Assembly: GCA_026710945.1 (NCBI GenBank)
Contig: JAPOQA010000031.1
Location: 50,611 to 114,610, forward strand
Length of the DNA stretch: 64,000 bases
DNA from: Chloroflexota bacterium
GTDB lineage: Bacteria; Chloroflexota; UBA11872; VXOZ01
Direction of reading: 5' to 3'
Shown: in pieces, positions 6,987 through 48,473 of the stretch
Layout of the letters: the number at the start of each line of letters is the position of its first letter
Position numbering within the stretch: the stretch's first letter is position 1
Translations under genes and position numbers: made by a program
Notes under the pieces: generated by a model
Seen by the model: the letters and a program-made list of their open reading frames with translations, nothing else
Database searches by the model: none
Told to the model about the DNA's origin: nothing

Positions 6987-9900
6987 TCAAGGCGGTCCGG
7001 CCCCAGCAGTTTTCAATCCCTCTCCAGAACTCGTGGGTTTCCGGCTAGTAGTGTACACGATGGCGCACAAGGCCGCCGTTAACCAAAACCAGCTCGCCAG
7101 GTCCGGCAAGAAATAGTAATTGTCCAACATGCCGTGGGTTACTGCCGCGAGTTGGCTCCCAGCCAAGCCCACACCAAGAGCGCGTACTTCCTTTTCCCGG
7201 CTGGTATACGCAATGCGATGTGTGAGCATGAAGAAGCGCGCAAGATAGCCAACGATGAAGACGACTCCCACTATCCCGAGGCGCAGCCAGAAGTCAAGGA
7301 AGAGATTGTGCGGGTGCGACAAATTCGGCTCACGCCAGGCAGCCGGGTTCAAGTACTGCGCGTGGACATAGAGGTAGTTATCCAGACCTACACCGGTGAT
7401 CGGGTAGTCCGCGATCATCTGCAGGGATGACTGCCCATTAACGATTCGCATGTGCGTCGTTGTGCCTGGCTCGACACTTAGTACCGACCGCACCCGCTCC
7501 GGGCCAAAGTTGACGCCACCGGCAAACAGCAGCACCGCGACGAGGACTACGCCACCGAAGAAACGTACCCGTAGTCGGCGTTCCGGCAAGAGCACCCAAA
7601 TGAAGAACAGCAGGAGTATAAGCCCGGCTATCCATCCCGCGCGCGAGAAGCTGCCCAGCAACGCCACCGCGAGCACACCTGCGAGCGGCCAAGCCACACG
7701 GGAGGGCCAAAGCTTGAACATGCCGGCAGCGACCACAAACGGCAGCGCCCGTTCGACTATCATCGCAAGGTGATTGGGCGAGGGATAGAATCCCGAGAGC
7801 CGAATCACGCCTTCTGCCTGCACCGCAGCATTGGGGTCGATGATGGGCCCTGCCAGCGCCACTGCCGCCGCCACGGCCGCGCCCGCCACAAACGCCTGTA
7901 TCAACCGCCACGCCTGCTGCCGGTTTTCGAGCAGCCAGCTTGCGACCAAGAACAATAGCACCGGCACAACTATCGTCTGGCGCAACTCGCGCAAACTAAA
8001 GACCCCATAGTGGGAAAACAGGAGCGACACCGCACCGATCACGAGCAAACCGACAGCCCACCAGGTAAAGACGCGCCGTTCAACAACCAAGCGCTGCCTC
8101 ACGAACGTGTGCACCAGCAGCGACCCGACGAGCAGTGCCGCCAGAATCTCATTGACGGGCAGCGCGAGGCGACCGGCGGCGGGTGTCAAAACGGAGAAGG
8201 GCAGTGTTGCTGCCACAACGAACAAGAGTGCACGGGGCCAGACCAGTGCGGCAAGGCCAAGCAGGGCCACGAGCAAATACTGCGCCGCCGCTCCCGGCAC
8301 AATCCACAGCAGACCGGCCACCGGCAGCAACAACCCGAATCGAGCCGTCTCATGCTGCCATATGCCACTGGCAGTCCGTTCCATGATCTTGCCGAGAAGC
8401 TCGCTAAGCTGACGCCGTTGCCGCAGCCATCCGGTAAGAATCCAGCCGATTGCGGCAATGAATCCCGCGTACAGCCCGCCTACAAGTACATAGGGCCACA
8501 AGGGACGTTCCCGCACGACGACTATGGCATCGATGTCTACCCCAATGTCGCTCGACTGTAGGTTGCGCCGGCCTGTGACTTCGATCTCAACAAGGTGCTC
8601 GCGATCCGGGAGTCGATCTGCCAGCAGCACTTCTTCTTGCCAGCGGTCTTCAGGTGCGTAAAGGTCCAGCATGGCCTGACCGCCCGCGTCCTTGTCCAGG
8701 CGGTGGGCAAGAGACTGCGAGCCGTTGATGCGCACCAATGCAATGCCCTTGTCCGGCCCTTTGTGGACTACCAGGGAGACTGCCGTGCCATGAAAGCGAA
8801 AGCGCAGGCGGGCGCCCGCCTGCGGGCTGCCCCGCGCCTGACCCAGCGAGTAGGTTTCATTGGCGATGTCGATCCACTCGCCCTCCCAGGCGAGCGCGGG
8901 ATGGTTCTCCTGATGGTAGCCCGGCCCGAGTACGGGCGGCGCGCCCATCAAATCCCGCATGGCCGCAAGCACCGGGCGCTGTGCGAATTCCTTATCCACA
9001 ATGCCGAAGTATTGCGTGGGGTCATCGGGGTGGGCTTGGGGCCAGTAGAAGTGCCAGAGATTTATCATCGGCAGCCACGGCCACTCGCGTTGCGCGCGCT
9101 GCATGCCCTCCACTGTGTAGCGTGCCTGCGTCGCTTCCGAGACATTGCCCCAAGGCGAAGGACTGCCCTGCCAGTCCGTTGGCAGCGCGACCCACCCGTA
9201 CTCTCCGGCCCAGATGGGTTTGGACGCGTCGCCGTTTCGCACCATCACTTCCCGTACCAACACCGCTCGCGCCATGTTCGTGCGGTGTCGCGCTATGTAG
9301 CGGTCATCCGGGCCGTGCCACAAGCCATAGGACGCCGTGCTGACCACGTCGAAGTACGGCGCGCCGCCGTGCGCATAGATGCCCTCGAGAAAGAGCAGCT
9401 CACTGAGGTTCTTGGGACCGGTCTCAGTCGTCGGCGCCAACACGGCGGCAACGATGATCGCCTTCGGATTCGCCTGCCGGATACGCTGCGAGGCCACTTG
9501 GAGCATCGCCACGTAGGCCGCCGGATCGGGATTGTGCGGCCACCATTCGCCATGGAGATTGGGTTCATTCCAAATTTGGAAGATCTGCACGTCCCCGCGG
9601 TACCGCTGGGCAAACGCATATGCAAAGTCTCCATAGTCCTCAAGCCGTGCCGGTGGGCCCTGTTGACGCCCGTCGTCCGGCGGCTTGTCGTCGGCATACG
9701 CCCAAGGTGGGGGTCGTTCGAGGCGCGCGATGATCGTCAAGTTGTGTTGCTTCGCCAGCGCGACCAGCCGGTCGTACTTCTGCCAGGTACTTTCCTCGGC
9801 AAGGTCGTTCCAGTACCTTCCCTTCCACGGACGCTCGATGTCCTCCCAGGCAAAGACCTGCCGGATGTAGCGAAAGCCTGCTTCTTCCAATAACGCCATG

Positions 9901-10103
9901 CCGCGCTCGATACGATCCCAATCCGGGTCTTGATCGAAGCGCGTATTGATGCCGTAGCGATACACCGCGGCGTGGCGGAGGGGGTGCACGGATTCGCGTC
10001 CGTAGGCGACGCCGGTTTCAAACCAGAAGCGGTAGCCGACCAAGGCCAGCGTCGCGGCGCAGAGCACCAGAAGACAACCAACAAAGAGGAGTAGTCGCAC
10101 CAC
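6987..10103 (-). CDS. fusion membrane protein: N-terminal TM anchor, clan GH-A-like glycoside hydrolase domain, and C-terminal O-antigen-ligase (Wzy_C / WaaL / PglL-like) polytopic domain
   Basis: 1038 aa; the N-terminal 350 aa carry GH5-like motifs (IWNEPNL acid/base, AGEYGW nucleophile); a middle beta-rich domain follows; the C-terminal ~500 aa have >=10 TM helices with Wzy_C hallmarks (FSRAGWIAGLILLLF, SHPHNLFLDFWLRLGIVG). Confidence 0.65.
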   Translation of the reverse strand: MVRLLLFVGCLLVLCAATLALVGYRFWFETGVAYGRESVHPLRHAAVYRYGINTRFDQDPDWDRIERGMALLEEAGFRYIRQVFAWEDIERPWKGRYWNDLAEESTWQKYDRLVALAKQHNLTIIARLERPPPWAYADDKPPDDGRQQGPPARLEDYGDFAYAFAQRYRGDVQIFQIWNEPNLHGEWWPHNPDPAAYVAMLQVASQRIRQANPKAIIVAAVLAPTTETGPKNLSELLFLEGIYAHGGAPYFDVVSTASYGLWHGPDDRYIARHRTNMARAVLVREVMVRNGDASKPIWAGEYGWVALPTDWQGSPSPWGNVSEATQARYTVEGMQRAQREWPWLPMINLWHFYWPQAHPDDPTQYFGIVDKEFAQRPVLAAMRDLMGAPPVLGPGYHQENHPALAWEGEWIDIANETYSLGQARGSPQAGARLRFRFHGTAVSLVVHKGPDKGIALVRINGSQSLAHRLDKDAGGQAMLDLYAPEDRWQEEVLLADRLPDREHLVEIEVTGRRNLQSSDIGVDIDAIVVVRERPLWPYVLVGGLYAGFIAAIGWILTGWLRQRRQLSELLGKIMERTASGIWQHETARFGLLLPVAGLLWIVPGAAAQYLLVALLGLAALVWPRALLFVVAATLPFSVLTPAAGRLALPVNEILAALLVGSLLVHTFVRQRLVVERRVFTWWAVGLLVIGAVSLLFSHYGVFSLRELRQTIVVPVLLFLVASWLLENRQQAWRLIQAFVAGAAVAAAVALAGPIIDPNAAVQAEGVIRLSGFYPSPNHLAMIVERALPFVVAAGMFKLWPSRVAWPLAGVLAVALLGSFSRAGWIAGLILLLFFIWVLLPERRLRVRFFGGVVLVAVLLFAGGVNFGPERVRSVLSVEPGTTTHMRIVNGQSSLQMIADYPITGVGLDNYLYVHAQYLNPAAWREPNLSHPHNLFLDFWLRLGIVGVVFIVGYLARFFMLTHRIAYTSREKEVRALGVGLAGSQLAAVTHGMLDNYYFLPDLASWFWLTAALCAIVYTTSRKPTSSGEGLKTAGAGPP

Positions 10104-33359: not shown

Positions 33360-35165
33360 CTAGTGTTCGACGCTTTCCACGTATTCCAACGACTGGTGCC
33401 GGAAGTAGGTGTCGTAGAGTCCGGCGTAGTGGCCGCCGGCGGCTAAGAGTGTTTGGTGGGTGCCTTCTTCCAATATGCGGCCGCTGTCCAAGACGAGGAT
33501 GCGGTCGGCGTGCTGCACCGTGTACAGGCGGTGCGCAATGACGATGGACGTGCGGTCGCGCATGATAGCCTCTATGCCGTCTTGGATCTGGACTTCGGTA
33601 AATGGGTCCACGCTTGCCGTGGCCTCATCCAAAATGAAGACTGCCGGATCGTGCAGCATGACGCGCGCCAGCGCTACAAGTTGGCGCTGGCCCATGGAAA
33701 GGCGCCCGCCGCGCTCGCCGACGTCCGATTCCAGCCCGTTCGGCAAGTCGGCAAGCCAGTCTCCTCCCGCAATGTGCTCCACCGCGCGCAGCACGTCCGC
33801 CTCATTGGCATCCGGCTTGCCATAGCGGACATTCTCCCCCACGGTACCGCTAAAGAGAAAGGGGGATTGCGGCACGATGCCGATCTGCCGACGATAGGAT
33901 GGCAGGTTGAACGTGCGGATGTCACGCCCGTCAACCAGCAGTTGGCCCTCCTGAAACTCATAGAAACGCGCCACCAGCCGCACAATGCTCGTCTTGCCGG
34001 AGCCGGTGTGACCGACCAAAGCAAGGGACTCGCCCGCGTGTATCGTTAGATTGAAGTCGGGGAGTACAGTCTCAGTTGGCAAGTAACTGAAGTTCACGTT
34101 CCTAAACTCAAACCCGCCCTGCACGTTTTCAGCGGAAATGTCGTCGGTCTGCACCACTCGTGATTCTGCGTCTATCAACCCGAATACTCGCTCACTGGCA
34201 GAAAGCCCATTCTGGAATTGGCTCCAGAACGAAGCGATTTGCGTAAGGGGAAACCAGAAGAACATGAGCGCTTGGATAAAAAGGTACCAATCGCCCACGC
34301 TCATAGTGCCGGAGGCCGTGTTCAAACCGCCGAAGTAGACGATGACTGCTGTGCCGATGCCGGCGGTGGCGTTAAAGACGGGAAAAAAGGTATTCAGCAC
34401 AATTCCCTGACGAAAGTTTACGCGATACGCTTGTTCGTTGATGCGGACAAAGTCATCGTGCACGGCCTTCTCTTGGCGAAAGACCTTAGCAACGGCAATA
34501 CCGCTAATAGACTCCTCGATGTGCGCGTTCACCCGCGCCATAATGCGCCGCGAGTGCAGCGACGTTTCGCGGGCAATGCGCCGGAATAGGAGCGAAATGG
34601 CTGCCACGAACGGCGCCATCGCCAAAGTAATTAACCCCAGCTGAAAGTTGATGAACAGCAGCACACCCCCCATAAGCAACACCAGCATGGCTTGGCTGAT
34701 GAGATTCATCGTCAGGGAGACCGTTTCCGCAAAGCCGTCGGTATCGGATGAAACGCGGCTTACCAGCTTGCCGGTCGGCTGGTCGTCAAAGAATGAGAGA
34801 TCGTGCCCCATGGTTGCATTGAAAGCATCCTCTCGAATCTTGAGCGTCACGTTCCCAATTGCCGTGGCGCCAAGCCACTGCCGGAGGAAATTCAAACCCC
34901 ATGAGACGCTGCTCAAGAGCAGAATGGAAGTGATGAGAAGCACCATTACCTGCGTGGCGGGATTGGCAATGACAAGGTCGATCCCGCGTGAAATGAGGAT
35001 CGGTACCGCGGTATCGGTAAGCGAGCCCACGAATACCGCGAGCGCAACAATCAGCATGGGGCGTGTTTGCGGGCGAAAGTAGTTGATGATGCGGCGCAGC
35101 AGCGCGCGATCGCTATACTCGCGATCGTACGCGTCCGCGTCCAGGCCGTCCATCACAAAGCCCAT
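33360..35165 (-). CDS. ABC exporter, fused permease-ATPase (MdlB/MsbA-like), heterodimer partner
   Basis: 601 aa; 6-TM domain plus NBD with GHTGSGKTS, LSMGQRQLVALARV, ILDEATASVD. Confidence 0.85.
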   Translation of the reverse strand: MGFVMDGLDADAYDREYSDRALLRRIINYFRPQTRPMLIVALAVFVGSLTDTAVPILISRGIDLVIANPATQVMVLLITSILLLSSVSWGLNFLRQWLGATAIGNVTLKIREDAFNATMGHDLSFFDDQPTGKLVSRVSSDTDGFAETVSLTMNLISQAMLVLLMGGVLLFINFQLGLITLAMAPFVAAISLLFRRIARETSLHSRRIMARVNAHIEESISGIAVAKVFRQEKAVHDDFVRINEQAYRVNFRQGIVLNTFFPVFNATAGIGTAVIVYFGGLNTASGTMSVGDWYLFIQALMFFWFPLTQIASFWSQFQNGLSASERVFGLIDAESRVVQTDDISAENVQGGFEFRNVNFSYLPTETVLPDFNLTIHAGESLALVGHTGSGKTSIVRLVARFYEFQEGQLLVDGRDIRTFNLPSYRRQIGIVPQSPFLFSGTVGENVRYGKPDANEADVLRAVEHIAGGDWLADLPNGLESDVGERGGRLSMGQRQLVALARVMLHDPAVFILDEATASVDPFTEVQIQDGIEAIMRDRTSIVIAHRLYTVQHADRILVLDSGRILEEGTHQTLLAAGGHYAGLYDTYFRHQSLEYVESVEH

Positions 35166-35214
35166 TGGCTCATCCTCATCGGAAGTGCGGAATTGAAAGT
35201 GTCAGCGGTCTCAG

Positions 35215-35645
35215 GCTTAGGGTAGCGCGGGGGCTTGTCCCCCGCTCCGGGCGCAACCACGCGAGGAGACGCGGATGGATTCCCGTTTTCGCGGGAATGA
35301 CGGATCGGGGATACACCCTCTCTCATCGCCAAGACGTGTTCGATGCGGCTAAACTTCGCCTTTCCTGTGCGGGACACCCCGGCACGTAGCGCGGGGGCTT
35401 GTCCCCCGCTCTTTGAGTTTCGCACTTGGCTCAGAGTAGATGGATTCCCGCTTTCGCGGGAATGACGGATCGGGGGTGTTCCCTCTCTCATCACCAAGAT
35501 GTGTTCGATGTAGCTAAACTTCGCCTTATCTGTGCGGGACACTCCGGCACGTAGCGCGGGGGCTTGTCCCCCGCTCTTGGCACATCGCACATATCGAAGA
35601 TCGGATAGTTTCCCGTTTTCGCGGGATTGACGGCAATTGGAACGG
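35215..35645. repeat. tandem array (~165-bp unit, ~2.7 copies) built from two hairpin families with variable ~27-bp inter-hairpin segments; not CRISPR
   Basis: Units start at 35221, 35384 and 35553 with ggtagcgcgggggcttgtcccccgctc; second hairpin ggattcccgytttcgcgggaatgacgg at 35275, 35443 and 35608; the conserved ~90-bp tail is absent from the last unit. Confidence 0.7.
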
Positions 35646-35695
35646 CTTCCCTGAGCTACAATGCCGTCACCTTGTGCCGCGATTCTACTCATCTA

Positions 35696-37703: not shown

Positions 37704-38291
37704 GTGGAGCGTGATGTGAAGAGTTTGGACGCGCAACGCCATTGGTGGCAGGTTGGGCGGGTAGTTCTGGGCGTGATGGCGTTTGCCATTTTGCTGGGTG
37801 GTTGTATTGCACAGCCCCAGGGCGTTGTCATCAATACCAAACCTACGCCCACACCGACGCCAGTTGTAGGCAACCCCAATAACGCAACGATCATCGAAGT
37901 CACGGTTGTGGACAACACGGTGCCGCCATCAGGCGTCGGCATTATCTGGATCAATCGCAGCGTAGGCTGGGCACCGTACGAGAGTCCCGGCGACGGTAGG
38001 TTGCCTCCCGATGAGTACGGCGTGCTGGTGTACATAGATGAAGAGCGCATCGGTGTCGTCTGGCCCGACGAAACCGGCGGAATGGGGCCGCGCCCCCTTG
38101 CAATTCCACAGAACGTATGGGGATTTGAGCTCGGCCAGCACACGCTCAAATTCGTCCAGCAAGGTCCTGAGGTGTGGCGAGAGTCTGCACCGATCATACT
38201 TGTGGTAACGGAAGACTTTAAGCCTACCCCCACAGTCCCGCCCAGTCCCACGCCGAAGCCAGTGCCGACACCGTCGCCGAGGCCGTCGTAG
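37704..38291 (+). CDS. secreted lipoprotein with Pro/Thr-rich linkers (hypothetical)
   Basis: 195 aa; GTG start; signal peptide with lipobox LLGGC; PTPTPTP and PSPTPKPVPTPSPRPS linkers flank a ~130-aa domain. Confidence 0.5.
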   Translation: MERDVKSLDAQRHWWQVGRVVLGVMAFAILLGGCIAQPQGVVINTKPTPTPTPVVGNPNNATIIEVTVVDNTVPPSGVGIIWINRSVGWAPYESPGDGRLPPDEYGVLVYIDEERIGVVWPDETGGMGPRPLAIPQNVWGFELGQHTLKFVQQGPEVWRESAPIILVVTEDFKPTPTVPPSPTPKPVPTPSPRPS

Positions 38292-38294
38292 TTA

Positions 38295-39551
38295 ATGTCT
38301 GAATCTCCTAATGGCGGTGTCGGCATCGTGCTGTTGGCCGCGGGGGAGTCCCAGCGGATGGCGGCCTCGTCAACGTCGTCATTGCCGAAAGCGCTGTTGC
38401 CCTGGTTCCGCAGACCGCTGATCCAGTACCAGCTTGAGCAAATTGCAGCGGTCGCCCCGGCGCACGTCGTTGTCGTTACCGGGTTTCATGCCGAGCGCTT
38501 AGCGCCCTACGTTGACGCTGTGGCGGGCATCCATGTAGTGAAAAACCCGAATCCGGAGCGGGGCAGAGCTTCCTCCATTGTGCACGGAGTGCGGGCGCTG
38601 CCCGAGACTCTGTCTGCCATCGCAGCAATCAACGTAGACCAGCCTTGTGCTGCGCCAATTCTCGCAAAACTCATTGCCGCAAGGGCCACAGGCAACCATC
38701 TCATTGCGATCCCGCGGTATCAGGGCGTGCGAGGACATCCTCCACTCTTCGCCAACGCTTTGCGCAGTGAATTGCTGCAGGTTCACGAGAATTCCCAGGG
38801 CCTGAAAGCGGTCACCCGGTCCCATCGCGCAGCAACGGCGTTTGTAGACATCGATGATCCCAGCGTGGTGTGGAATCTCAATACACCGGCTGACTATTAT
38901 CAAGCGCAGCAACAACACATTCTGCTTGCTACAACGAATAGCGCCAAGACCGAGCACCTCGCATGGCTGCTCGAAGGTGTGCCGCTTCGGCGCGTTACGT
39001 TGGCAGAGGCGGGACTACAAAGTGAGTCGCCCCCTTCGGAAGACCAACCAACACTACAAGCAATTGCCGCAAGCAAAGCGATTGCGTGGTCGCGGTCATT
39101 TGGCGGATTGGCGCTTGCATCAGACGGCGGCATTTCTATACCAGCGTTAGGCGACTCTTGGGAAGAGCGCTTAACGGCCCGCTTTGCAGGCAGCCAAGCC
39201 ACAGACAAGCAGCGCGTAGAAGCGCTGTTGGCACTGCTTCGACCCTACCGCTCAGAGGAACGGCTCGCGTACTTTCGTGAGTGCGTAGCACTTGCGAACA
39301 ACGGAACCCTCTTGCAGTCGTGGAGCGCCGAGAGTGCGCCCGGCTTGATCGCCGAGACCTATCGCCCGGACCAGCTCGTCTCCGGTTTTTGGCTGCTGAC
39401 ACTGTGGTGCGACCCGCAATCCGGCAAGCGTCTCGGCGTATTCACACCTGATGACCCTGCGTATCCGGACGGGGCTTGGGCAAGCCTAAAACCCAGCGTG
39501 CGGCAGTTCTTGCTGGGCTATCTTGAGCGCTACCTCAATCCGGCAACGTAA
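38295..39551 (+). CDS. fusion protein: MobA-like nucleotidyltransferase N-terminal domain plus Ham1/RdgB-like (non-canonical NTP pyrophosphatase) C-terminal domain
   Basis: 418 aa; the N-terminus (VLLAAGESQRM...KALLP) matches MobA/MocA-type NTP transferases; the C-terminus has Ham1 motifs (ILLATTNSAKTEHL resembles ATGNxGKxxE; ALASDGGISIPALGD; GFWLL resembles GFGYDPIF). Confidence 0.55.
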   Translation: MSESPNGGVGIVLLAAGESQRMAASSTSSLPKALLPWFRRPLIQYQLEQIAAVAPAHVVVVTGFHAERLAPYVDAVAGIHVVKNPNPERGRASSIVHGVRALPETLSAIAAINVDQPCAAPILAKLIAARATGNHLIAIPRYQGVRGHPPLFANALRSELLQVHENSQGLKAVTRSHRAATAFVDIDDPSVVWNLNTPADYYQAQQQHILLATTNSAKTEHLAWLLEGVPLRRVTLAEAGLQSESPPSEDQPTLQAIAASKAIAWSRSFGGLALASDGGISIPALGDSWEERLTARFAGSQATDKQRVEALLALLRPYRSEERLAYFRECVALANNGTLLQSWSAESAPGLIAETYRPDQLVSGFWLLTLWCDPQSGKRLGVFTPDDPAYPDGAWASLKPSVRQFLLGYLERYLNPAT

Positions 39552-40548
39552 GCGTTGCTTCGGATTGCTTGTCCCGGTCTCCTTCTATCACCACCAACCC
39601 ATCGCCCTCCAGGTCTTGTGCCAGCTCCCACAACCAAGCCGCCTGCGGCCTTACAGGGCCTAGTTCGTGGAGGTGACTTACTATTGCAGCAAAGTTGAGC
39701 GTGTTGCCCGGCGAGCAATCGCGCAGAGCAGCAATGATTCGCCCCCGATAATAACGCCGCGAGCCCGCAAATGTTCCCTGGCTCTTAGGGCGCAGTGAAG
39801 GTAGGTCATAAGTATCTGTCGTCCGCCACGCCTGGCACCACATGGCGAGAGGACAGTGCGGGCAGTCCGGCTTGCGCGACGTGCAGACCGTCGAACCAAG
39901 GTCCATGAGCGCCTGGTTCCAGCGCGCAGATTGTCTCTTGGGTACGAGGCTATCCGCCAAGGCCTGAAGCTGCCGCTCCGTTGGACCTGCGACCCCAAGT
40001 AACTTCTGGAGATCGCCACGCAATACCCTGCCCAGCACGCGCCGCACATTGGTATCCACTACCGCTACCTGTGTGTTACCTAGAAAGCTTAGCAGCGCTC
40101 GTGCGGTATACGGCCCGATTCCGGGCAGACGCAAGAGCGACTGCAAACACATGGGGAATTTGCCGTCATGCTCCTGAACGACAGCCTGTGCCGCGCGATG
40201 AAGATGCACGGCGCGGCGGTTGTAGCCAAGCCCAGCCCACAGGCGAATGACTTCTGCCGTCGGTGCAGCCGCTAGCCGTCGCATGGTCGGGAATCGTTCG
40301 ATGAAGGCATTGTACTTCGGTATCACGCGCTCGACTTGGGTCTGTTGCAGCATCATTTCAGCCAGGAATTTGCGATACGGACTCTTCGTTTGTCGCCAGG
40401 GCAATTCCCTGCGATTAAGGCGGTACCAGCCTAACAACGCGTCCTGGAAGTGCCGCACGACTTCAGCCCGCGTCAACTGCAGCGTGCCGTTGGTCGTCAG
40501 CGAACAATACTCGCCCCTGTCGTGCTTTCTTTCACGTTTGGTTAGCAT
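39535..40548 (-). CDS. mutY: A/G-specific adenine DNA glycosylase
   Basis: ORF 39535..40674; probable start at MLTKRE (40548); HhH-GPD motif (LPGIGPYTARALLSF), 4Fe-4S cluster loop CTSRKPDCPHCPLAMWC, and C-terminal NUDIX-like domain. Confidence 0.8.
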   Translation of the reverse strand: MLTKRERKHDRGEYCSLTTNGTLQLTRAEVVRHFQDALLGWYRLNRRELPWRQTKSPYRKFLAEMMLQQTQVERVIPKYNAFIERFPTMRRLAAAPTAEVIRLWAGLGYNRRAVHLHRAAQAVVQEHDGKFPMCLQSLLRLPGIGPYTARALLSFLGNTQVAVVDTNVRRVLGRVLRGDLQKLLGVAGPTERQLQALADSLVPKRQSARWNQALMDLGSTVCTSRKPDCPHCPLAMWCQAWRTTDTYDLPSLRPKSQGTFAGSRRYYRGRIIAALRDCSPGNTLNFAAIVSHLHELGPVRPQAAWLWELAQDLEGDGLVVIEGDRDKQSEATLTLPD

Positions 40549-40667
40549 GCGCCGAATGAATTCTTCTCTTGTATAAGTACTTTCACGTACGGAGACTGAC
40601 TCGACGTTGCCGCTCCTCAACAAGCCCTCTATGGAATTGAAGAGGTGGCGGATCACTAGGAACGAGT

Positions 40668-41564
40668 ATGCCACAGGCGCTCTACGAAGAAGTGCAGTGC
40701 AAGACTGCGCTCACGCGCGTACGAGGCATGGCTTTCGGCTGGAGTCTCAATCCCTACCGGGGATGTACCCATGGCTGCCACTACTGCTTCGCTCGCAGCA
40801 CACACTTTTTCTATGATCTCAATGCTGATGAAGAGTTTTCTTCAATAGTCTTCGTCAAAGCGAATATAGCGGATGTGCTGCGCCTGGAACTCTCCGCACC
40901 AAGCTGGCGGCGTCACCGCGTCGTTATCGGTACGGCTACTGATCCGTACCAGCCGATCGAAGGCAAGTACCGGTTGACTCACGACGCATTGGAAGCCTTC
41001 CTCGCCTTCCGCACGCCGGTGTCCATCATTACTAAGTCCTCGCTTGTCGTCCGTGACGCGGATATTCTCGCTGAATTAGCGATGAGTCTGGGGTGTACGG
41101 TGAATTTCAGCATTACGACATTGGAGCGGACACTGTGGCGAGAACTTGAACCCGGCACGGCGCCGCCGGAACAGCGGCTACGTGCAATGCAGCGGCTCGC
41201 GGCACTCGGTGTCCACACCGGCGTTCTGCTTGCCCCCATCATACCGGGCCTCACAGCAACAAAAGAGAACCTGGAGTCCGTTGCCCGCGCGGCCGCAGAA
41301 CACAACGCCTGCTTTCTGGCGGCGAACGTGCTCAACCTAGGTGTCGGCGTCAAGGAGCACTTCTTGCAGTATCTTCGGACCGAACACCCGGGGCTCCTCG
41401 GCACCTATCGACAGCTCTATCCCGGTCGCTATGCGGCTGATCGCTATACCGAACCGCTATACGATTATGTCACCCTACTGCAACAGCGCTACGCGCTAGA
41501 CAAGCGAGAACTCACCCACTCTCCAAGACCGGAACCTGAGCAGTTACCCCTCGGCATAATGTAA
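40668..41564 (+). CDS. radical SAM protein, spore-photoproduct-lyase-like / Rv2578c-type 'DNA repair photolyase' family
   Basis: 298 aa; CxxxCxxC motif NPYRGCTHGCHYCFA near the N-terminus; divergent from mutY. Confidence 0.7.
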   Translation: MPQALYEEVQCKTALTRVRGMAFGWSLNPYRGCTHGCHYCFARSTHFFYDLNADEEFSSIVFVKANIADVLRLELSAPSWRRHRVVIGTATDPYQPIEGKYRLTHDALEAFLAFRTPVSIITKSSLVVRDADILAELAMSLGCTVNFSITTLERTLWRELEPGTAPPEQRLRAMQRLAALGVHTGVLLAPIIPGLTATKENLESVARAAAEHNACFLAANVLNLGVGVKEHFLQYLRTEHPGLLGTYRQLYPGRYAADRYTEPLYDYVTLLQQRYALDKRELTHSPRPEPEQLPLGIM

Positions 41565-45724: not shown

Positions 45725-47200
45725 GTGGTCAAGTGGTCGTACACGCCCCGCGTGCAAATTGTCGGGCGGGCGGCAAGAAGCCCTGAAGCTATCACGGCCG
45801 GCATGGCGCGCATCAGTCGTGACCCGACGCCTGTGCCCCAACTCATCAAAGAAGCGCGCGACAACACAGCCATGGCCCGTCTGCGCAACCAGCGAGTTGT
45901 GTACGAATACGGGCACAATAGCGTCGCGGAACATGGTTGTTTCAGCGCCGCCATTTGGGACATCCCCCGTCTGCTTTCGCTGGAAATCGTGCAGCACCGG
46001 CTGGCGGCGTACACGCAGCACAGCGGACGGTATATCCCCTTTGAGGAAGTGCCGCGCCAATTCTATTTGCCTAGGGAATACCGTCGCGGCAAGTCGCGGC
46101 GCCTCTTCGAACAGGCAGTAGCCCAGAGCTACACAGCCTATCGCAAGCTCTATGCCGGCTGCACCGCCTATCTTCTGGAAAAGTATCCCCGCATGCGCGC
46201 TTCCTCGGCTGAACGCCGTGCCACGGAGGACGCGCGCTACGTCTTGCCCCTGGCGCAGACAACCCAAGTGGGGGTAACGACGAACGCGCGTGAATTCGCC
46301 CTTATGATCACGCGGCTGCTCTCATCACCGCTCCCTGAATTCCGTGAAACCGGTGAGAAGCTCTTTGCCAGCCTCCATCCGATTGCACCCTCGCTCTTTC
46401 CGGAAAAGTATATCCGTGCACTGCCTTACCCTCAGAGTGGACGCGATGCCATTCGGAAAGCGGCAGCGGCGCTTGGCATTGCCCCGGCGCCGAATGTCCG
46501 CAATTCTCCCAGGGCCGACCGGCCCGCACAACCGACAGCCAAAGACCCGGTGCGGCTCGTAGGCTATGATCCGGACGGTGAGCGGCACGTAGCCGCGGCG
46601 CTGTTGTTTCACAATTCACAAACGACTCTTGCCGACGCGCAGCAGGCGATAGCACGCCTTGATGCCGACCAAGTGGGCCAATTCATCCGGTCTGCCTACC
46701 GCGGACTGCATGCCCACGACACTGTGCTACGCGAATTCGAATTCCTTCGCTACCAGTTTGAATTGGTGATGTCGGAAGCCGCGTATCACCAGTTCATTCG
46801 CCACCGCATGAAAACTGAGATCTCTCAGTCCCACAGCCCCACGCATGGGCGCACGCTTCCGCCGCTTATTCGGAATGCCGGCTTTGCAGACGAGTACAAT
46901 CGCACGCTCGATCTCTTGGAAGAGACGTACCACGCTCTTGGCGCCGACAAGCGTGCTGAAATCGTACTTGCCAACGGGCACAACCTCCGCATCCTGGCAG
47001 ACCTCAACGCGCGCGAAGTCGTGGAAATATCCCGTATTCGCAGCGACCGCCACGCGCAGTGGGACATTCGCAACATCTCCGATGCGATTGCCGCCGCCGT
47101 GTCGCGCGTTCATCCGCACGTGGGATTGGCTTGCGGCGGGCGTGACTCATTCAAGGACGGTACTGCCGCCGTACTGCCGGATACTTCCATCTTGACGTAG
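45725..47200 (+). CDS. tandem-duplicated flavin-dependent thymidylate synthase (ThyX-ThyX fusion) with complementary motif degeneration
   Basis: 491 aa; GTG start; the N-half has EYGHNSVAEHGCFSAAIWDIP...QHRLAAYTQHSGRY...ARYVLPLAQTT; the C-half has FEFLRY...IRHRMKTEISQS...RSDRHAQWDI; each half aligns to a full-length canonical ThyX. Confidence 0.65.
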   Translation: MVKWSYTPRVQIVGRAARSPEAITAGMARISRDPTPVPQLIKEARDNTAMARLRNQRVVYEYGHNSVAEHGCFSAAIWDIPRLLSLEIVQHRLAAYTQHSGRYIPFEEVPRQFYLPREYRRGKSRRLFEQAVAQSYTAYRKLYAGCTAYLLEKYPRMRASSAERRATEDARYVLPLAQTTQVGVTTNAREFALMITRLLSSPLPEFRETGEKLFASLHPIAPSLFPEKYIRALPYPQSGRDAIRKAAAALGIAPAPNVRNSPRADRPAQPTAKDPVRLVGYDPDGERHVAAALLFHNSQTTLADAQQAIARLDADQVGQFIRSAYRGLHAHDTVLREFEFLRYQFELVMSEAAYHQFIRHRMKTEISQSHSPTHGRTLPPLIRNAGFADEYNRTLDLLEETYHALGADKRAEIVLANGHNLRILADLNAREVVEISRIRSDRHAQWDIRNISDAIAAAVSRVHPHVGLACGGRDSFKDGTAAVLPDTSILT

Positions 47201-47387: not shown

Positions 47388-48473
47388 ATGGCTAGGCGAA
47401 CGAAGACTACTGAAGAAAATGGCGTGGAGGGACGTACCCAGGCTCTGCAGGCCGCGATCAGCCAGATTGAGCGTCGTTACGGCAAAGGCTCGATCATGCG
47501 CATGGGCGAAGAGGCAGGTGTGCCTGTTGCTGTCGTTCCTACCGGCTCACTATCGCTGGACCTGGCGCTGGGAGTAGGCGGCTTGCCCCGGGGCCGCGTC
47601 GTCGAGATTTACGGCAATGAGGGCAGCGGCAAGACTACCCTGGCCCAGCACGTCGTGGCTGAAGCGCAGAAACTCGGTGGCACTGCTGCTTTTGTGGATG
47701 CCGAGCACGCGTTCGATCCCACCTATGCCGCTAAGTGCGGCGTTGGCATTGAAGAGCTACTTGTTTCCCAGCCGGACAATGGCGAACAAGCTTTGGAAAT
47801 CGCCGAGATGCTGGTGCGCAGCAATGCCGTCGATGTAATAGTGGTCGACTCTGTAGCGGCCTTGGTACCGAAAGCCGAAATAGAAGGCGAAATGGGCGAC
47901 GCCCACATGGGCTTGCAAGCGCGGCTGATGTCCCAGGCGCTCCGCAAGCTTACGGCCGCAATCAGCCGTTCGCGCACAGTGGTCATCTTCATCAATCAAG
48001 TGCGCGAGAAGATCGGCGTGATGTTCGGCAACCCGGAGACCACGCCGGGAGGGCGCGCGCTCCGCTTCTACTCGTCGGTGCGCGTAGACGTTCGTCGTGT
48101 TGACTACGTGAAGAGCGGACAGGAGCAGGTAGGCATCCGCGTGCGCGCCAAGGTCGTGAAAAACAAGGTGGCGCCGCCGTTCCGAACGTGCGAATTCGAC
48201 ATTTTGTTCGACGAAGGGATTTCCAAGCTGGGCGATCTCATCGACCTCTCGACCGAGTATGGCATCGTGCGCAAGGCAGGGGCGCACTACTCGCATGGTG
48301 ACACGCGCCTCGGCCTCGGGCGTGAAAACGTCCGCAATTTCCTCAAAGAGAATACCGACATCGCAGAAGCAATTGAACTGGCAGTGCGCACACAAGCACA
48401 GGCATCCCTCGCCGACACTCCCGCGGACGAGGTTGTCGAGGCGATGGCAGACACCGAGACTGCAGCGCAATGA
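47388..48473 (+). CDS. recA: recombinase RecA
   Basis: 361 aa; Walker [10 protein letters not shown]; L1/L2 loops; typical RecA N-terminus ([22 protein letters not shown]). Confidence 0.95.

Follow-up and report, generated by a model that had tools for sequence, protein, structure and literature searches.

We analysed a 64,000-nucleotide (nt) stretch of contig JAPOQA010000031.1 from a Chloroflexota bacterium (the window), which carries a gene joining a MocA-like nucleotidyltransferase domain to an atypical Ham1-like pyrophosphatase domain. By a modest balance of probability, this gene encodes a bifunctional fusion protein that arose once and whose halves would work side by side, the N-terminal half in synthesis of molybdopterin cytosine dinucleotide (MCD) and the C-terminal half in sanitation of the nucleotide pool with a specificity other than for ITP. 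The fusion is a one-off, and the more general finding is a Ham1 variant that usually stands alone, tail to tail with an unusual MutY-like gene.

A MocA-like and a Ham1-like domain in one reading frame

The fusion gene is a single uninterrupted open reading frame (ORF) with an ATG start, encoding 418 amino acids (aa) (Table 1), and its translation contains every motif listed by an earlier reading of this DNA made from its letters alone (the sequence-only reading): LLAAGESQRM and PKALLPW in the N-terminal half, and ATTNSAKTEHL, ALASDGGIS and GFWLL in the C-terminal half. That reading had proposed a MobA/MocA-type N-terminal half and a Ham1-type C-terminal half, and both domains indeed pass their Pfam gathering cut-offs, with PF12804 (NTP_transf_3) matching residues 12-178 (102 bits vs. 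a cut-off of 27, E = 4.7e-29, profile positions 2-158 of 160) and PF01725 (Ham1p_like) matching residues 209-354 (52.3 bits vs. 22.5, E = 8.7e-14). Scanning the two halves apart left these results unchanged, with PF12804 at E = 1e-29 for the N-terminal domain.

An AlphaFold2 model of the whole protein, built with 27 homologues, reached a predicted local distance difference test score (pLDDT) of 88 and a predicted template modelling score (pTM) of 0.85. Foldseek comparison of this model with the PDB gave target-normalised template modelling (TM) scores of 0.72-0.87 over both sets of matches: the N-terminal half matched 3d5n, Rv0371c (2we9, 2wee, 2yes) and MobA (1e5k, 1hjj) at 0.75-0.87, and the C-terminal half matched the RdgB/Ham1 structures 3tqu (E = 1.1e-12), 1k7k (E = 3e-12), 2q16 and 4bnq at 0.72-0.83, with 2q16 at 0.83. 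In the clade of the window protein the alignment leaves almost no linker between the halves; in the basal fusion member (L016), ~40 aa of low-complexity sequence link them.

Kept and changed residues in the Ham1-like half

Exhaustive profile search with the C-terminal domain across 1.84 billion representatives (a library clustered at 50% identity) returned 2831 matches at E ≤ 1e-3 and 83 at E ≤ 1e-30. Fusions made up only 3 of the 150 best matches; the great majority of the others were proteins of 200-220 aa that stand alone and align with the whole profile, atypical C-terminal part included, and the 120 members listed by a further search were all single-domain. These proteins share the signature TTNPAK ... 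E.G.S..NA..KA ... A(S/T)DGG..IPALG..W....T.RFAG ... R...W.EAVA ... GFW ... (H)W, and diverge to about 30% identity. Judged by these alignments, the C-terminal half belongs to a distinct, previously uncharacterised subfamily of Ham1/RdgB proteins, mostly stand-alone and found in Chloroflexota and Patescibacteria, one listed member of which NCBI names "dITP/XTP pyrophosphatase [Candidatus Berkelbacteria]". A few members have extensions, among them two with long C-terminal ones, one of 785 aa (P0114) with ~580 residues lacking a Pfam match and one of 559 aa (P0129) with a weak Mom-like (DNA-modification) match (E = 6e-4).

ITPase/Ham1 proteins are textbook house-cleaning enzymes defined by their SHR pocket. 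A search of the PDB with the subfamily profile gave full-length alignments to RdgB and Coxiella Ham1 (E = 5e-28), allowing residue-by-residue comparison. As in RdgB, Ham1 and human ITPA (PF01725; TIGR00042), the fold is accompanied by the T-x-N-x-x-K motif (RdgB T8, N10 and K13; here T213, N215 and K218), the E..KA segment (E41 and K53; E249 and K261), the catalytic Asp (D69; D277) and the S/T-A-R-F segment (S-A-R87; T-A-R296), and all of these kept residues are invariant both in the fusion clade and in the subfamily. In the account given by PMC8893687 (citing Savchenko 2007), RdgB needs K13 to hydrolyse ITP, and with N10A its activity falls to 30%. The RdgB chains crystallised with ITP (2q16) and IMP (2pyu) read ADASGL where wild-type 1k7k reads ADDSGL; D69 was therefore removed to trap the ligand, which marks as catalytic the residue that aligns with D277.

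Other defining features of RdgB and ITPA are changed. RdgB D68 is replaced by S276 (Ser/Thr across the subfamily), turning the acidic pair DD/ED that precedes SGL in canonical ITPases into ASDGG, with Ser in place of the first acid. The base-stacking motif GFGYDP becomes GFW366LLT, where only G-F is kept, and the SHR signature, a conserved ITPase specificity pocket whose essential Arg (Arg178) contacts the hypoxanthine base (PMC5075207), becomes G-A-W395, or (H)W across the subfamily. An invariant Glu with no RdgB counterpart, E329, is gained. Scores of 31-54 bits against equivalog cut-offs of 145-234 (TIGR00042, 30.9-33 vs. 145; NF011397, 52-54 vs. 234), together with a score far below the PRK14822 cut-off, likewise set this half apart, as do its fusion to a second enzyme and its link to a MutY-like gene. 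The C-terminal half thus appears to keep the part of the site that bears the chemistry, with the base-recognition part rebuilt around tryptophans, and by its residues it is not a canonical ITP/XTP pyrophosphatase.

The sequence-only reading had called this half Ham1/RdgB-like. The fold and the phosphate-binding, metal-binding and catalytic residues (N215, K218, E249, K261 and D277 among them) bear this out, whereas a canonical RdgB/ITPase identity falls with the loss of SHR, D68 and GYDP. With a significant Ham1 match and the catalytic residues retained, the Ham1 assignment itself stands.

MocA-type ancestry of the N-terminal half

Among characterised families, the N-terminal half is best matched by MocA, whose model TIGR03310 it covers over nearly its full length (102.4 bits, profile positions 2-187 of 188). 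In common with E. coli MocA (YgfJ) and B. subtilis PucB (TIGR03310, TIGR03202; PF12804), it has an AAG-type nucleotide-binding loop and DQP, RGHP and NxNTP motifs; the loop is reportedly AAG in MocA and AGG in MobA. Invariant in the fusion clade are K32, D115-Q-P, R146-G-H-P-P (RGHPPLF) and N194-L-N196-T-P (NLNTPxDY), and we take the invariants of this half to be the NTP loop, the metal-binding Asp and the molybdopterin-side motifs known from MobA and MocA. The highest-scoring NCBIfam model, NF045665 (DVU_1551-family NTP transferase, 112 bits), is matched only at profile positions 4-207 of 359, far under its 315-bit cut-off, and in its C-terminal part that family has no relation to Ham1.

A profile of the N-terminal domain retrieves stand-alone proteins of ~200 aa that share 40-46% identity with it and belong to Dehalococcoidia, SAR202 and other Chloroflexota. 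These are the nearest unfused relatives, and many carry the name "molybdenum cofactor cytidylyltransferase" in NCBI and JGI. One starts 2 nt after an XdhC_CoxI chaperone gene and another lies directly after a CoxM/CoxS/CoxL-type operon (FAD_binding_5, Fer2/Fer2_2, Ald_Xan_dh_C + MoCoBD), so that two of the three relatives examined have an XdhC or xanthine-oxidase/carbon monoxide dehydrogenase (CODH)-type context, the third being uninformative. Since pucA-pucB and xdhC-mocA are the classical MocA gene arrangements (PMC2997495), we read this half as MocA-type, and conclude that it has MocA-type ancestry.

With gene starts corrected, all fusion members keep the loop LLAAGES(Q/R)RM. Two predicted proteins, P0024 and P0029, had seemed to lack it, and re-reading of the DNA showed that gene callers had picked internal starts: the true N-terminus of P0029 is MPQLGVIVLAAGASQRMGEPK... 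(L016:1444), and that of P0024 is ...IVLLAAGESRRM followed by 31 aa and PKALLPW (L141). P0025 had also seemed to lack the loop; the re-reading of starts covered P0029 and P0024. Three Ham1-only predictions of 267-297 aa (P0026-P0028) were likewise rejected as natural truncations, their starts lying inside the N-terminal domain; gene calls that are partial or wrongly started most likely explain them. Just after this loop most members have a hypervariable insert rich in Ser, Thr, Ala and Pro (8 to ~35 residues; L001-L015, L141) that displaces the Gly after RM, and residues 21-30 of the fusion model have low pLDDT. In L016 the loop runs uninterrupted as RMGEPK, with only two residues (GE) at the insert position. 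Some inserts hold short repeats, such as TKAASE in L009.

Losses in the two halves could also be read as decay, with the Ham1-like half a pseudo-enzyme, a nucleotide-binding or regulatory module that has no catalysis of its own and tunes the transferase, or else with the transferase half degenerating. The absence of D68, SHR and GYDP, the partial PF01725 coverage and the variable insert in the N-terminal loop are what such decay would leave, but the triphosphate- and metal-contacting residues and the catalytic Asp are invariant in a subfamily that diverges to ~30% identity, and its stand-alone ancestors have no partner domain that they could regulate. In the transferase half, LLAAGES(Q/R)RM, K32, the Asp of DQP and NxNTP are invariant, the ratio of nonsynonymous to synonymous substitution rates (dN/dS) is about 0.1-0.2, and the apparent loop loss in P0024 was a gene-start error. 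We therefore regard decay of either half as improbable, and retain two active halves as the preferred reading.

A single, clade-restricted fusion event

Fusion members were surveyed by a search of 5.8 billion proteins and a scan of one genome per species. The protein search recovered the identical two-domain architecture in ~29 protein clusters at 50-97% identity, and the genome scan yielded 15 fusion loci, all labelled as Chloroflexota metagenome-assembled genomes. Several of these loci come from sponge- or coral-type projects, going by isolate names only. The sequence-only reading had thought such a fusion uncommon and had proposed looking for it in relatives; it proves to be both present in relatives, down to 50% identity, and rare, being limited to one Chloroflexota clade.

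The fusion is one unbroken ORF in 16 independent genome or metagenome loci (L001-L016), and its architecture is also found at L141. An assembly or frameshift artefact was rejected on this evidence, and an origin by collapse of a conserved mocA-ham1 gene pair was rejected as no such pair occurs in any stand-alone locus. Among fusion members, pairwise dN/dS was 0.09-0.2 in each half (rough values, as dS is close to saturation), and both halves are kept under purifying selection. A neighbour-joining (NJ) tree, which is a rough distance tree rather than a rigorous phylogeny, places the MobA fusion as a single monophyletic clade nested among MutY-paired lineages. Collectively, the fusion is a single, clade-restricted event in a Chloroflexota lineage, which also brought in an upstream lipoprotein gene.

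Pairing of stand-alone relatives with a MutY-like gene

For the neighbourhoods of stand-alone Ham1-like genes, a metagenome collection was scanned with the degenerate pattern ASDGGxxIPALG, giving 119 loci that were analysed with home-built hidden Markov models; such sampling favours members with the exact motif, and nearly all 119 loci held a confirmed subfamily ORF. In the first contexts viewed, an HhH-GPD gene downstream of the stand-alone Ham1-like gene converged on it and overlapped it, matching the window arrangement, and one early locus had MutS and MutL just upstream of the Ham1-like gene. After de-replication at 70% identity, a convergent, usually overlapping MutY-like partner lay within 1.5 kb in 29/51 evaluable stand-alone clusters, and MutL lay upstream on the same strand as the Ham1-like gene in 12 loci, with the caveat that the lineages behind these counts are not independent and convergent genes are not co-transcribed. 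Every MutY-like ORF found was downstream of the Ham1-like gene and on the opposite strand, with gaps mostly between -117 and +20 nt. At no pattern-found locus outside the fusion clade (>100 stand-alone loci) was there a MobA-like ORF, fused or nearby. In the NJ tree, MutY pairing extends across many deep branches and a molybdenum (Mo)-enzyme context is limited to one derived clade. The C-terminal half thus descends from stand-alone, MutY-paired genes of a Ham1 lineage whose pocket is remodelled.

The MutY-like partner is itself atypical. The window protein scores 244 bits against TIGR01084 mutY (cut-off, 286.5) and matches the catalytic core of E. coli MutY at E = 2e-50. Across loci, the Glu and Asp motifs of MutY type and the iron-sulfur loop are retained in these partners, and the Lys of EndoIII never occurs; a Nudix-like domain for recognition of 8-oxoguanine (8-oxoG) was not detected in the window gene or in other partners (L020, L021, L024, L030, L038 and others). 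They end in a tail of ~100 aa with the motif R[YF][YF]RG[RK]I, seen in 22 of 25 stand-alone partners, for whose fold a weak winged-helix match is the sole hint. By their motifs, the Ham1-paired MutY-like glycosylases look like a MutY subfamily in their own right.

As in the MutT/MutY 'GO system', a gene for a putative (d)NTP pyrophosphohydrolase is paired here with one for a MutY-type glycosylase, an analogy that suggests a split of labour between cleaning the pool and excising mispaired bases. Unlike in that system, the hydrolase has a Ham1 rather than a Nudix fold, the glycosylase carries a short R[YF][YF]RG[RK]I tail in place of the Nudix-like 8-oxoG domain, and the two genes are convergent and hence not co-transcribed. 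A bolder reading, which we consider doubtful, would make the Ham1-like subfamily a fold-switched MutT analogue for an oxidised or modified purine dNTP, forming a two-gene anti-mutator unit with the Nudix-less MutY-like glycosylase in Chloroflexota, and in the sponge- or coral-associated clade also welded to MCD synthesis, with a molybdo-hydroxylase destroying the released purine. If true, the MutT analogue, the MutY-like enzyme and MCD synthesis would amount to a three-armed module for the disposal of purine damage.

Two members of Patescibacteria type have housekeeping contexts without MutY. In Patescibacteria loci L147/L148 (4405-5627), an AAA_17 (nucleotide-kinase-like) gene lies upstream in the same orientation and shares 4 nt with the Ham1-like gene, an overlap that suggests a small nucleotide-metabolism operon. 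In the Mo-context clade (L017, L029, L039, L091, L099 and related loci), a recurring block comprises an MFS transporter, sulfite-oxidase-type Mo enzymes, a cupin, a PF04199 cyclase, the Ham1-like gene, a MoxR AAA gene, in some cases a HepT/MNT pair, and a VWA_CoxE-like gene; the cyclase, MFS, cupin and Mo-enzyme genes lie upstream of the Ham1-like gene, and MoxR AAA and VWA_CoxE-like downstream.

These neighbourhoods bear on whether the two halves share a reaction. The sequence-only reading had suggested that the halves carry out a coupled reaction, with an unusual (d)NTP or a cofactor precursor as substrate, for which we find no comparative support, the subfamily being otherwise stand-alone, without MobA-like neighbours, present in Patescibacteria and partnered by a MutY-like gene. 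A specific form of this idea is that the Ham1-like half works on a pterin or cytidine pyrophosphate compound, in that it cleaves mis-made or surplus MCD, molybdopterin guanine dinucleotide or adenylylated molybdopterin (MPT-AMP), or proofreads the NTP of the transferase. The near absence of a linker in the window clade, the pTM of the two-domain model, the subfamily clade in a Mo-enzyme/MoxR/VWA context and a Trp-rich base pocket that could, going by its residues, take a bulkier aromatic group would all fit such coupling. We nevertheless consider it very improbable: the subfamily is overwhelmingly stand-alone, its conserved partner is MutY-like or MutL rather than a gene of the molybdenum cofactor (Moco), and the long low-complexity linker of L016 is consistent with independent domains. 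Patescibacteria, moreover, where members sit in housekeeping contexts, are generally not known to have Moco metabolism. We treat direct chemical coupling between the halves as a disfavoured hypothesis, and return to activities carried out side by side.

Candidate functions of the joined halves

In the favoured reading, the N-terminal half would act as a MocA-type CTP:molybdopterin cytidylyltransferase (Mo-molybdopterin (Mo-MPT) + CTP → MCD + PPi), whose product would supply xanthine-oxidase/CODH-family enzymes encoded elsewhere in the genome. The C-terminal half would be a Mg2+-dependent nucleoside-triphosphate pyrophosphatase (NTP → NMP + PPi) working by the RdgB mechanism. Its preferred substrate is probably not ITP or XTP, since the base-specificity pocket appears rebuilt around conserved tryptophans; a different aberrant purine (d)NTP, which may be oxidised or N-modified, is the likelier candidate. 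Ancestrally and in general, the subfamily would serve in nucleotide-pool sanitation alongside DNA repair by the MutY-like glycosylase and MutL, and in the fusion the halves would work in parallel on one polypeptide, linked at most at the level of pathways, through shared disposal of aberrant purines, and with no channelled intermediate.

Several observations weigh against this reading. The PF01725 match spans only profile positions 1-139 of 186, an early indication of an atypical C-terminal third, and this coverage together with the replacement of D68 may point to reduced or different chemistry, as far as residues can tell. No solved structure found by the profile search of the PDB belongs to the Ham1-like subfamily. 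The N-terminal half, for its part, differs from MocA and PucB in lying under the TIGR03310 equivalog cut-off (102.4 vs. 186.45 bits), in having a C-terminal enzyme attached, and in having its RMGxxK loop split by the low-complexity insert in all members except L016. No gene of Moco biosynthesis, for XdhC, or of the xanthine-oxidase/xanthine dehydrogenase (XDH)/CODH family lies within the 64-kb window. The derived stand-alone clade among sulfite-oxidase-type Mo enzymes and MoxR/VWA genes constitutes a second, independent association with Mo. Finally, stability of the fusion over ~50% sequence divergence hints at a selective benefit of joining, which activities merely placed side by side do not explain.

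A rival reading is coupling between pathways in the disposal of aberrant purines, whereby the Ham1-like half would hydrolyse damaged purine (d)NTPs (N-hydroxylated, deaminated or oxidised ones, for example), the MocA half would ensure maturation of an MCD-dependent hydroxylase that degrades the released bases, the MutY-like enzyme would excise what still enters DNA, and the fusion would co-regulate the arms. Protection of E. coli against 6-hydroxylaminopurine uses RdgB, EndoV and a Moco-dependent system (PMC1173102), the Moco-dependent activities being YcbX and YiiM (PMC3831636, PMC5818509). Knock-outs of pucA/pucB, homologues of XdhC and MocA, impair growth on hypoxanthine or guanosine, and MCD-dependent XDH-type enzymes catabolise bases whose triphosphates Ham1 enzymes remove (PMC2997495), hypoxanthine and xanthine being the bases of ITP and XTP. 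This E. coli defence and XDH-type purine catabolism make a pathway-level link plausible, and purifying selection on both halves and the separate Ham1-like clade among Mo enzymes are consistent with it. Set against these points, the fusion is limited to one clade, no stand-alone member lies near a MobA-like gene, MOSC, XDH and Moco genes are all absent from the 64-kb window, and the subfamily lacks the SHR that recognises hypoxanthine and xanthine. The Moco-dependent system of E. coli is also said to use MOSC enzymes with Mo-MPT and to need no dinucleotide formation. We accordingly think coupling of this kind unlikely, and keep independent activities on one polypeptide as the preferred account.

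Novelty and implications for annotation

Both parent superfamilies are textbook, and nothing here is categorically new. Three items nonetheless appear to be undescribed in the searchable literature: the fusion architecture, the SHR-less Ham1 subfamily with a Trp pocket, and the tail-to-tail pairing with a Nudix-less MutY-like gene. We found no description of a MocA-like::Ham1-like fusion or of a Ham1-MutY pairing in that literature, whose coverage leaves out most subscription journals. Of wider interest is that a sizeable Ham1 lineage seems to keep the chemistry, discard the SHR pocket and remain stably paired with an atypical MutY-like glycosylase, which together make it a candidate for a new nucleotide-sanitation specificity in Chloroflexota and Patescibacteria. 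The MocA-type fusion is a natural Rosetta-stone hint that echoes the genetic overlap of Moco and RdgB/Ham1 in protection against base analogues, and offers a concrete object for probing that connection. If the halves are independent, the value lies in annotation, in that neither "dITP/XTP pyrophosphatase" nor "MocA" should be assigned by transfer alone.

Other features of the window

Table 1 Features of the window, with positions counted from its first letter
Feature	Position	Strand	Basis or remarks
MocA-like NTP transferase + atypical Ham1-like pyrophosphatase fusion gene	38295..39551	+	418 aa plus stop; ORF, Pfam, recurring architecture
N-terminal MobA/MocA-like nucleotidyltransferase domain	38295..38903	+	Residues 1-203; PF12804, TIGR03310, Foldseek, MocA-named relatives
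Nucleotide-binding loop LLAAGESQRM	38331..38360	+	Residues 13-22; AAG type as in MocA; alignments
Low-complexity Ser/Thr/Ala insert AASSTSSL in RMGxxK loop	38361..38384	+	Residues 23-30; alignments, low pLDDT
C-terminal Ham1-like domain of a distinct subfamily	38916..39548	+	Residues 208-418; PF01725, profile vs. PDB, subfamily alignment
D277 codon, counterpart of RdgB D69	39123..39125	+	1k7k vs. 2pyu/2q16 chains aligned to subfamily profile; invariant
W395 codon, at Arg position of ITPase SHR signature	39477..39479	+	Invariant across subfamily (alignments)
MutY-like adenine-glycosylase gene	39535..40674	-	Convergent, overlaps 3' end of fusion gene by 17 nt; TIGR01084, E. coli MutY core
Rv2578c/PA0069-family (SplB-like 'DNA repair photolyase') radical SAM gene	40668-41564	+	Start overlaps, divergently, the annotated MutY-like start
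Lipoprotein-like gene upstream of fusion	37704..38291	+	195 aa; lipobox-like LLGGC, Pro/Thr-rich linkers
ThyX ORF	45725-47200	+	491 aa; two Thy1 (PF02511) stretches
RecA	47388-48473		Immediately after ThyX ORF
165-nt tandem repeats	35222-35633		~2.5-3 copies, 85% identity
ORF through the 165-nt repeats	35153-35692	-	179 aa; judged spurious
GH5/Wzy_C ORF	6987-10103	-	1038 aa

The sequence-only reading had placed the fusion gene 3 nt behind a secreted lipoprotein gene with Pro/Thr linkers, and this arrangement is confirmed: the lipoprotein-like gene has a lipobox-like motif and such linkers, and its TAG ends 3 nt before the fusion ATG with no terminator-like site between the two genes, so far as the intervening letters go making co-transcription probable. 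Its product has no Pfam or NCBIfam match, and the gene is present only with the fusion clade (L001-L016).

On the other side of the fusion, the radical SAM gene adjoins the MutY-like gene in L001-L015 and in L141/L142, and CdaA, ThyX and RecA follow within 9 kb beyond the MutY-like and radical SAM genes of the window. The local setting of the locus is thus nucleic-acid maintenance, not Moco. The ThyX ORF resembles a flavin-dependent thymidylate synthase that has been duplicated in tandem or fused.

Further from the fusion, the spacer between two ABC-exporter genes holds the tandem copies of a 165-nt unit, each with two GC-rich hairpin-like cores, GCGGGGGCTTGTCCCCCGC and TTCCCGTTTTCGCGGGAA. Elsewhere in the window, a GH5 cellulase-like N-terminal region and a Wzy_C (O-antigen ligase-like) membrane domain are joined in one long ORF.

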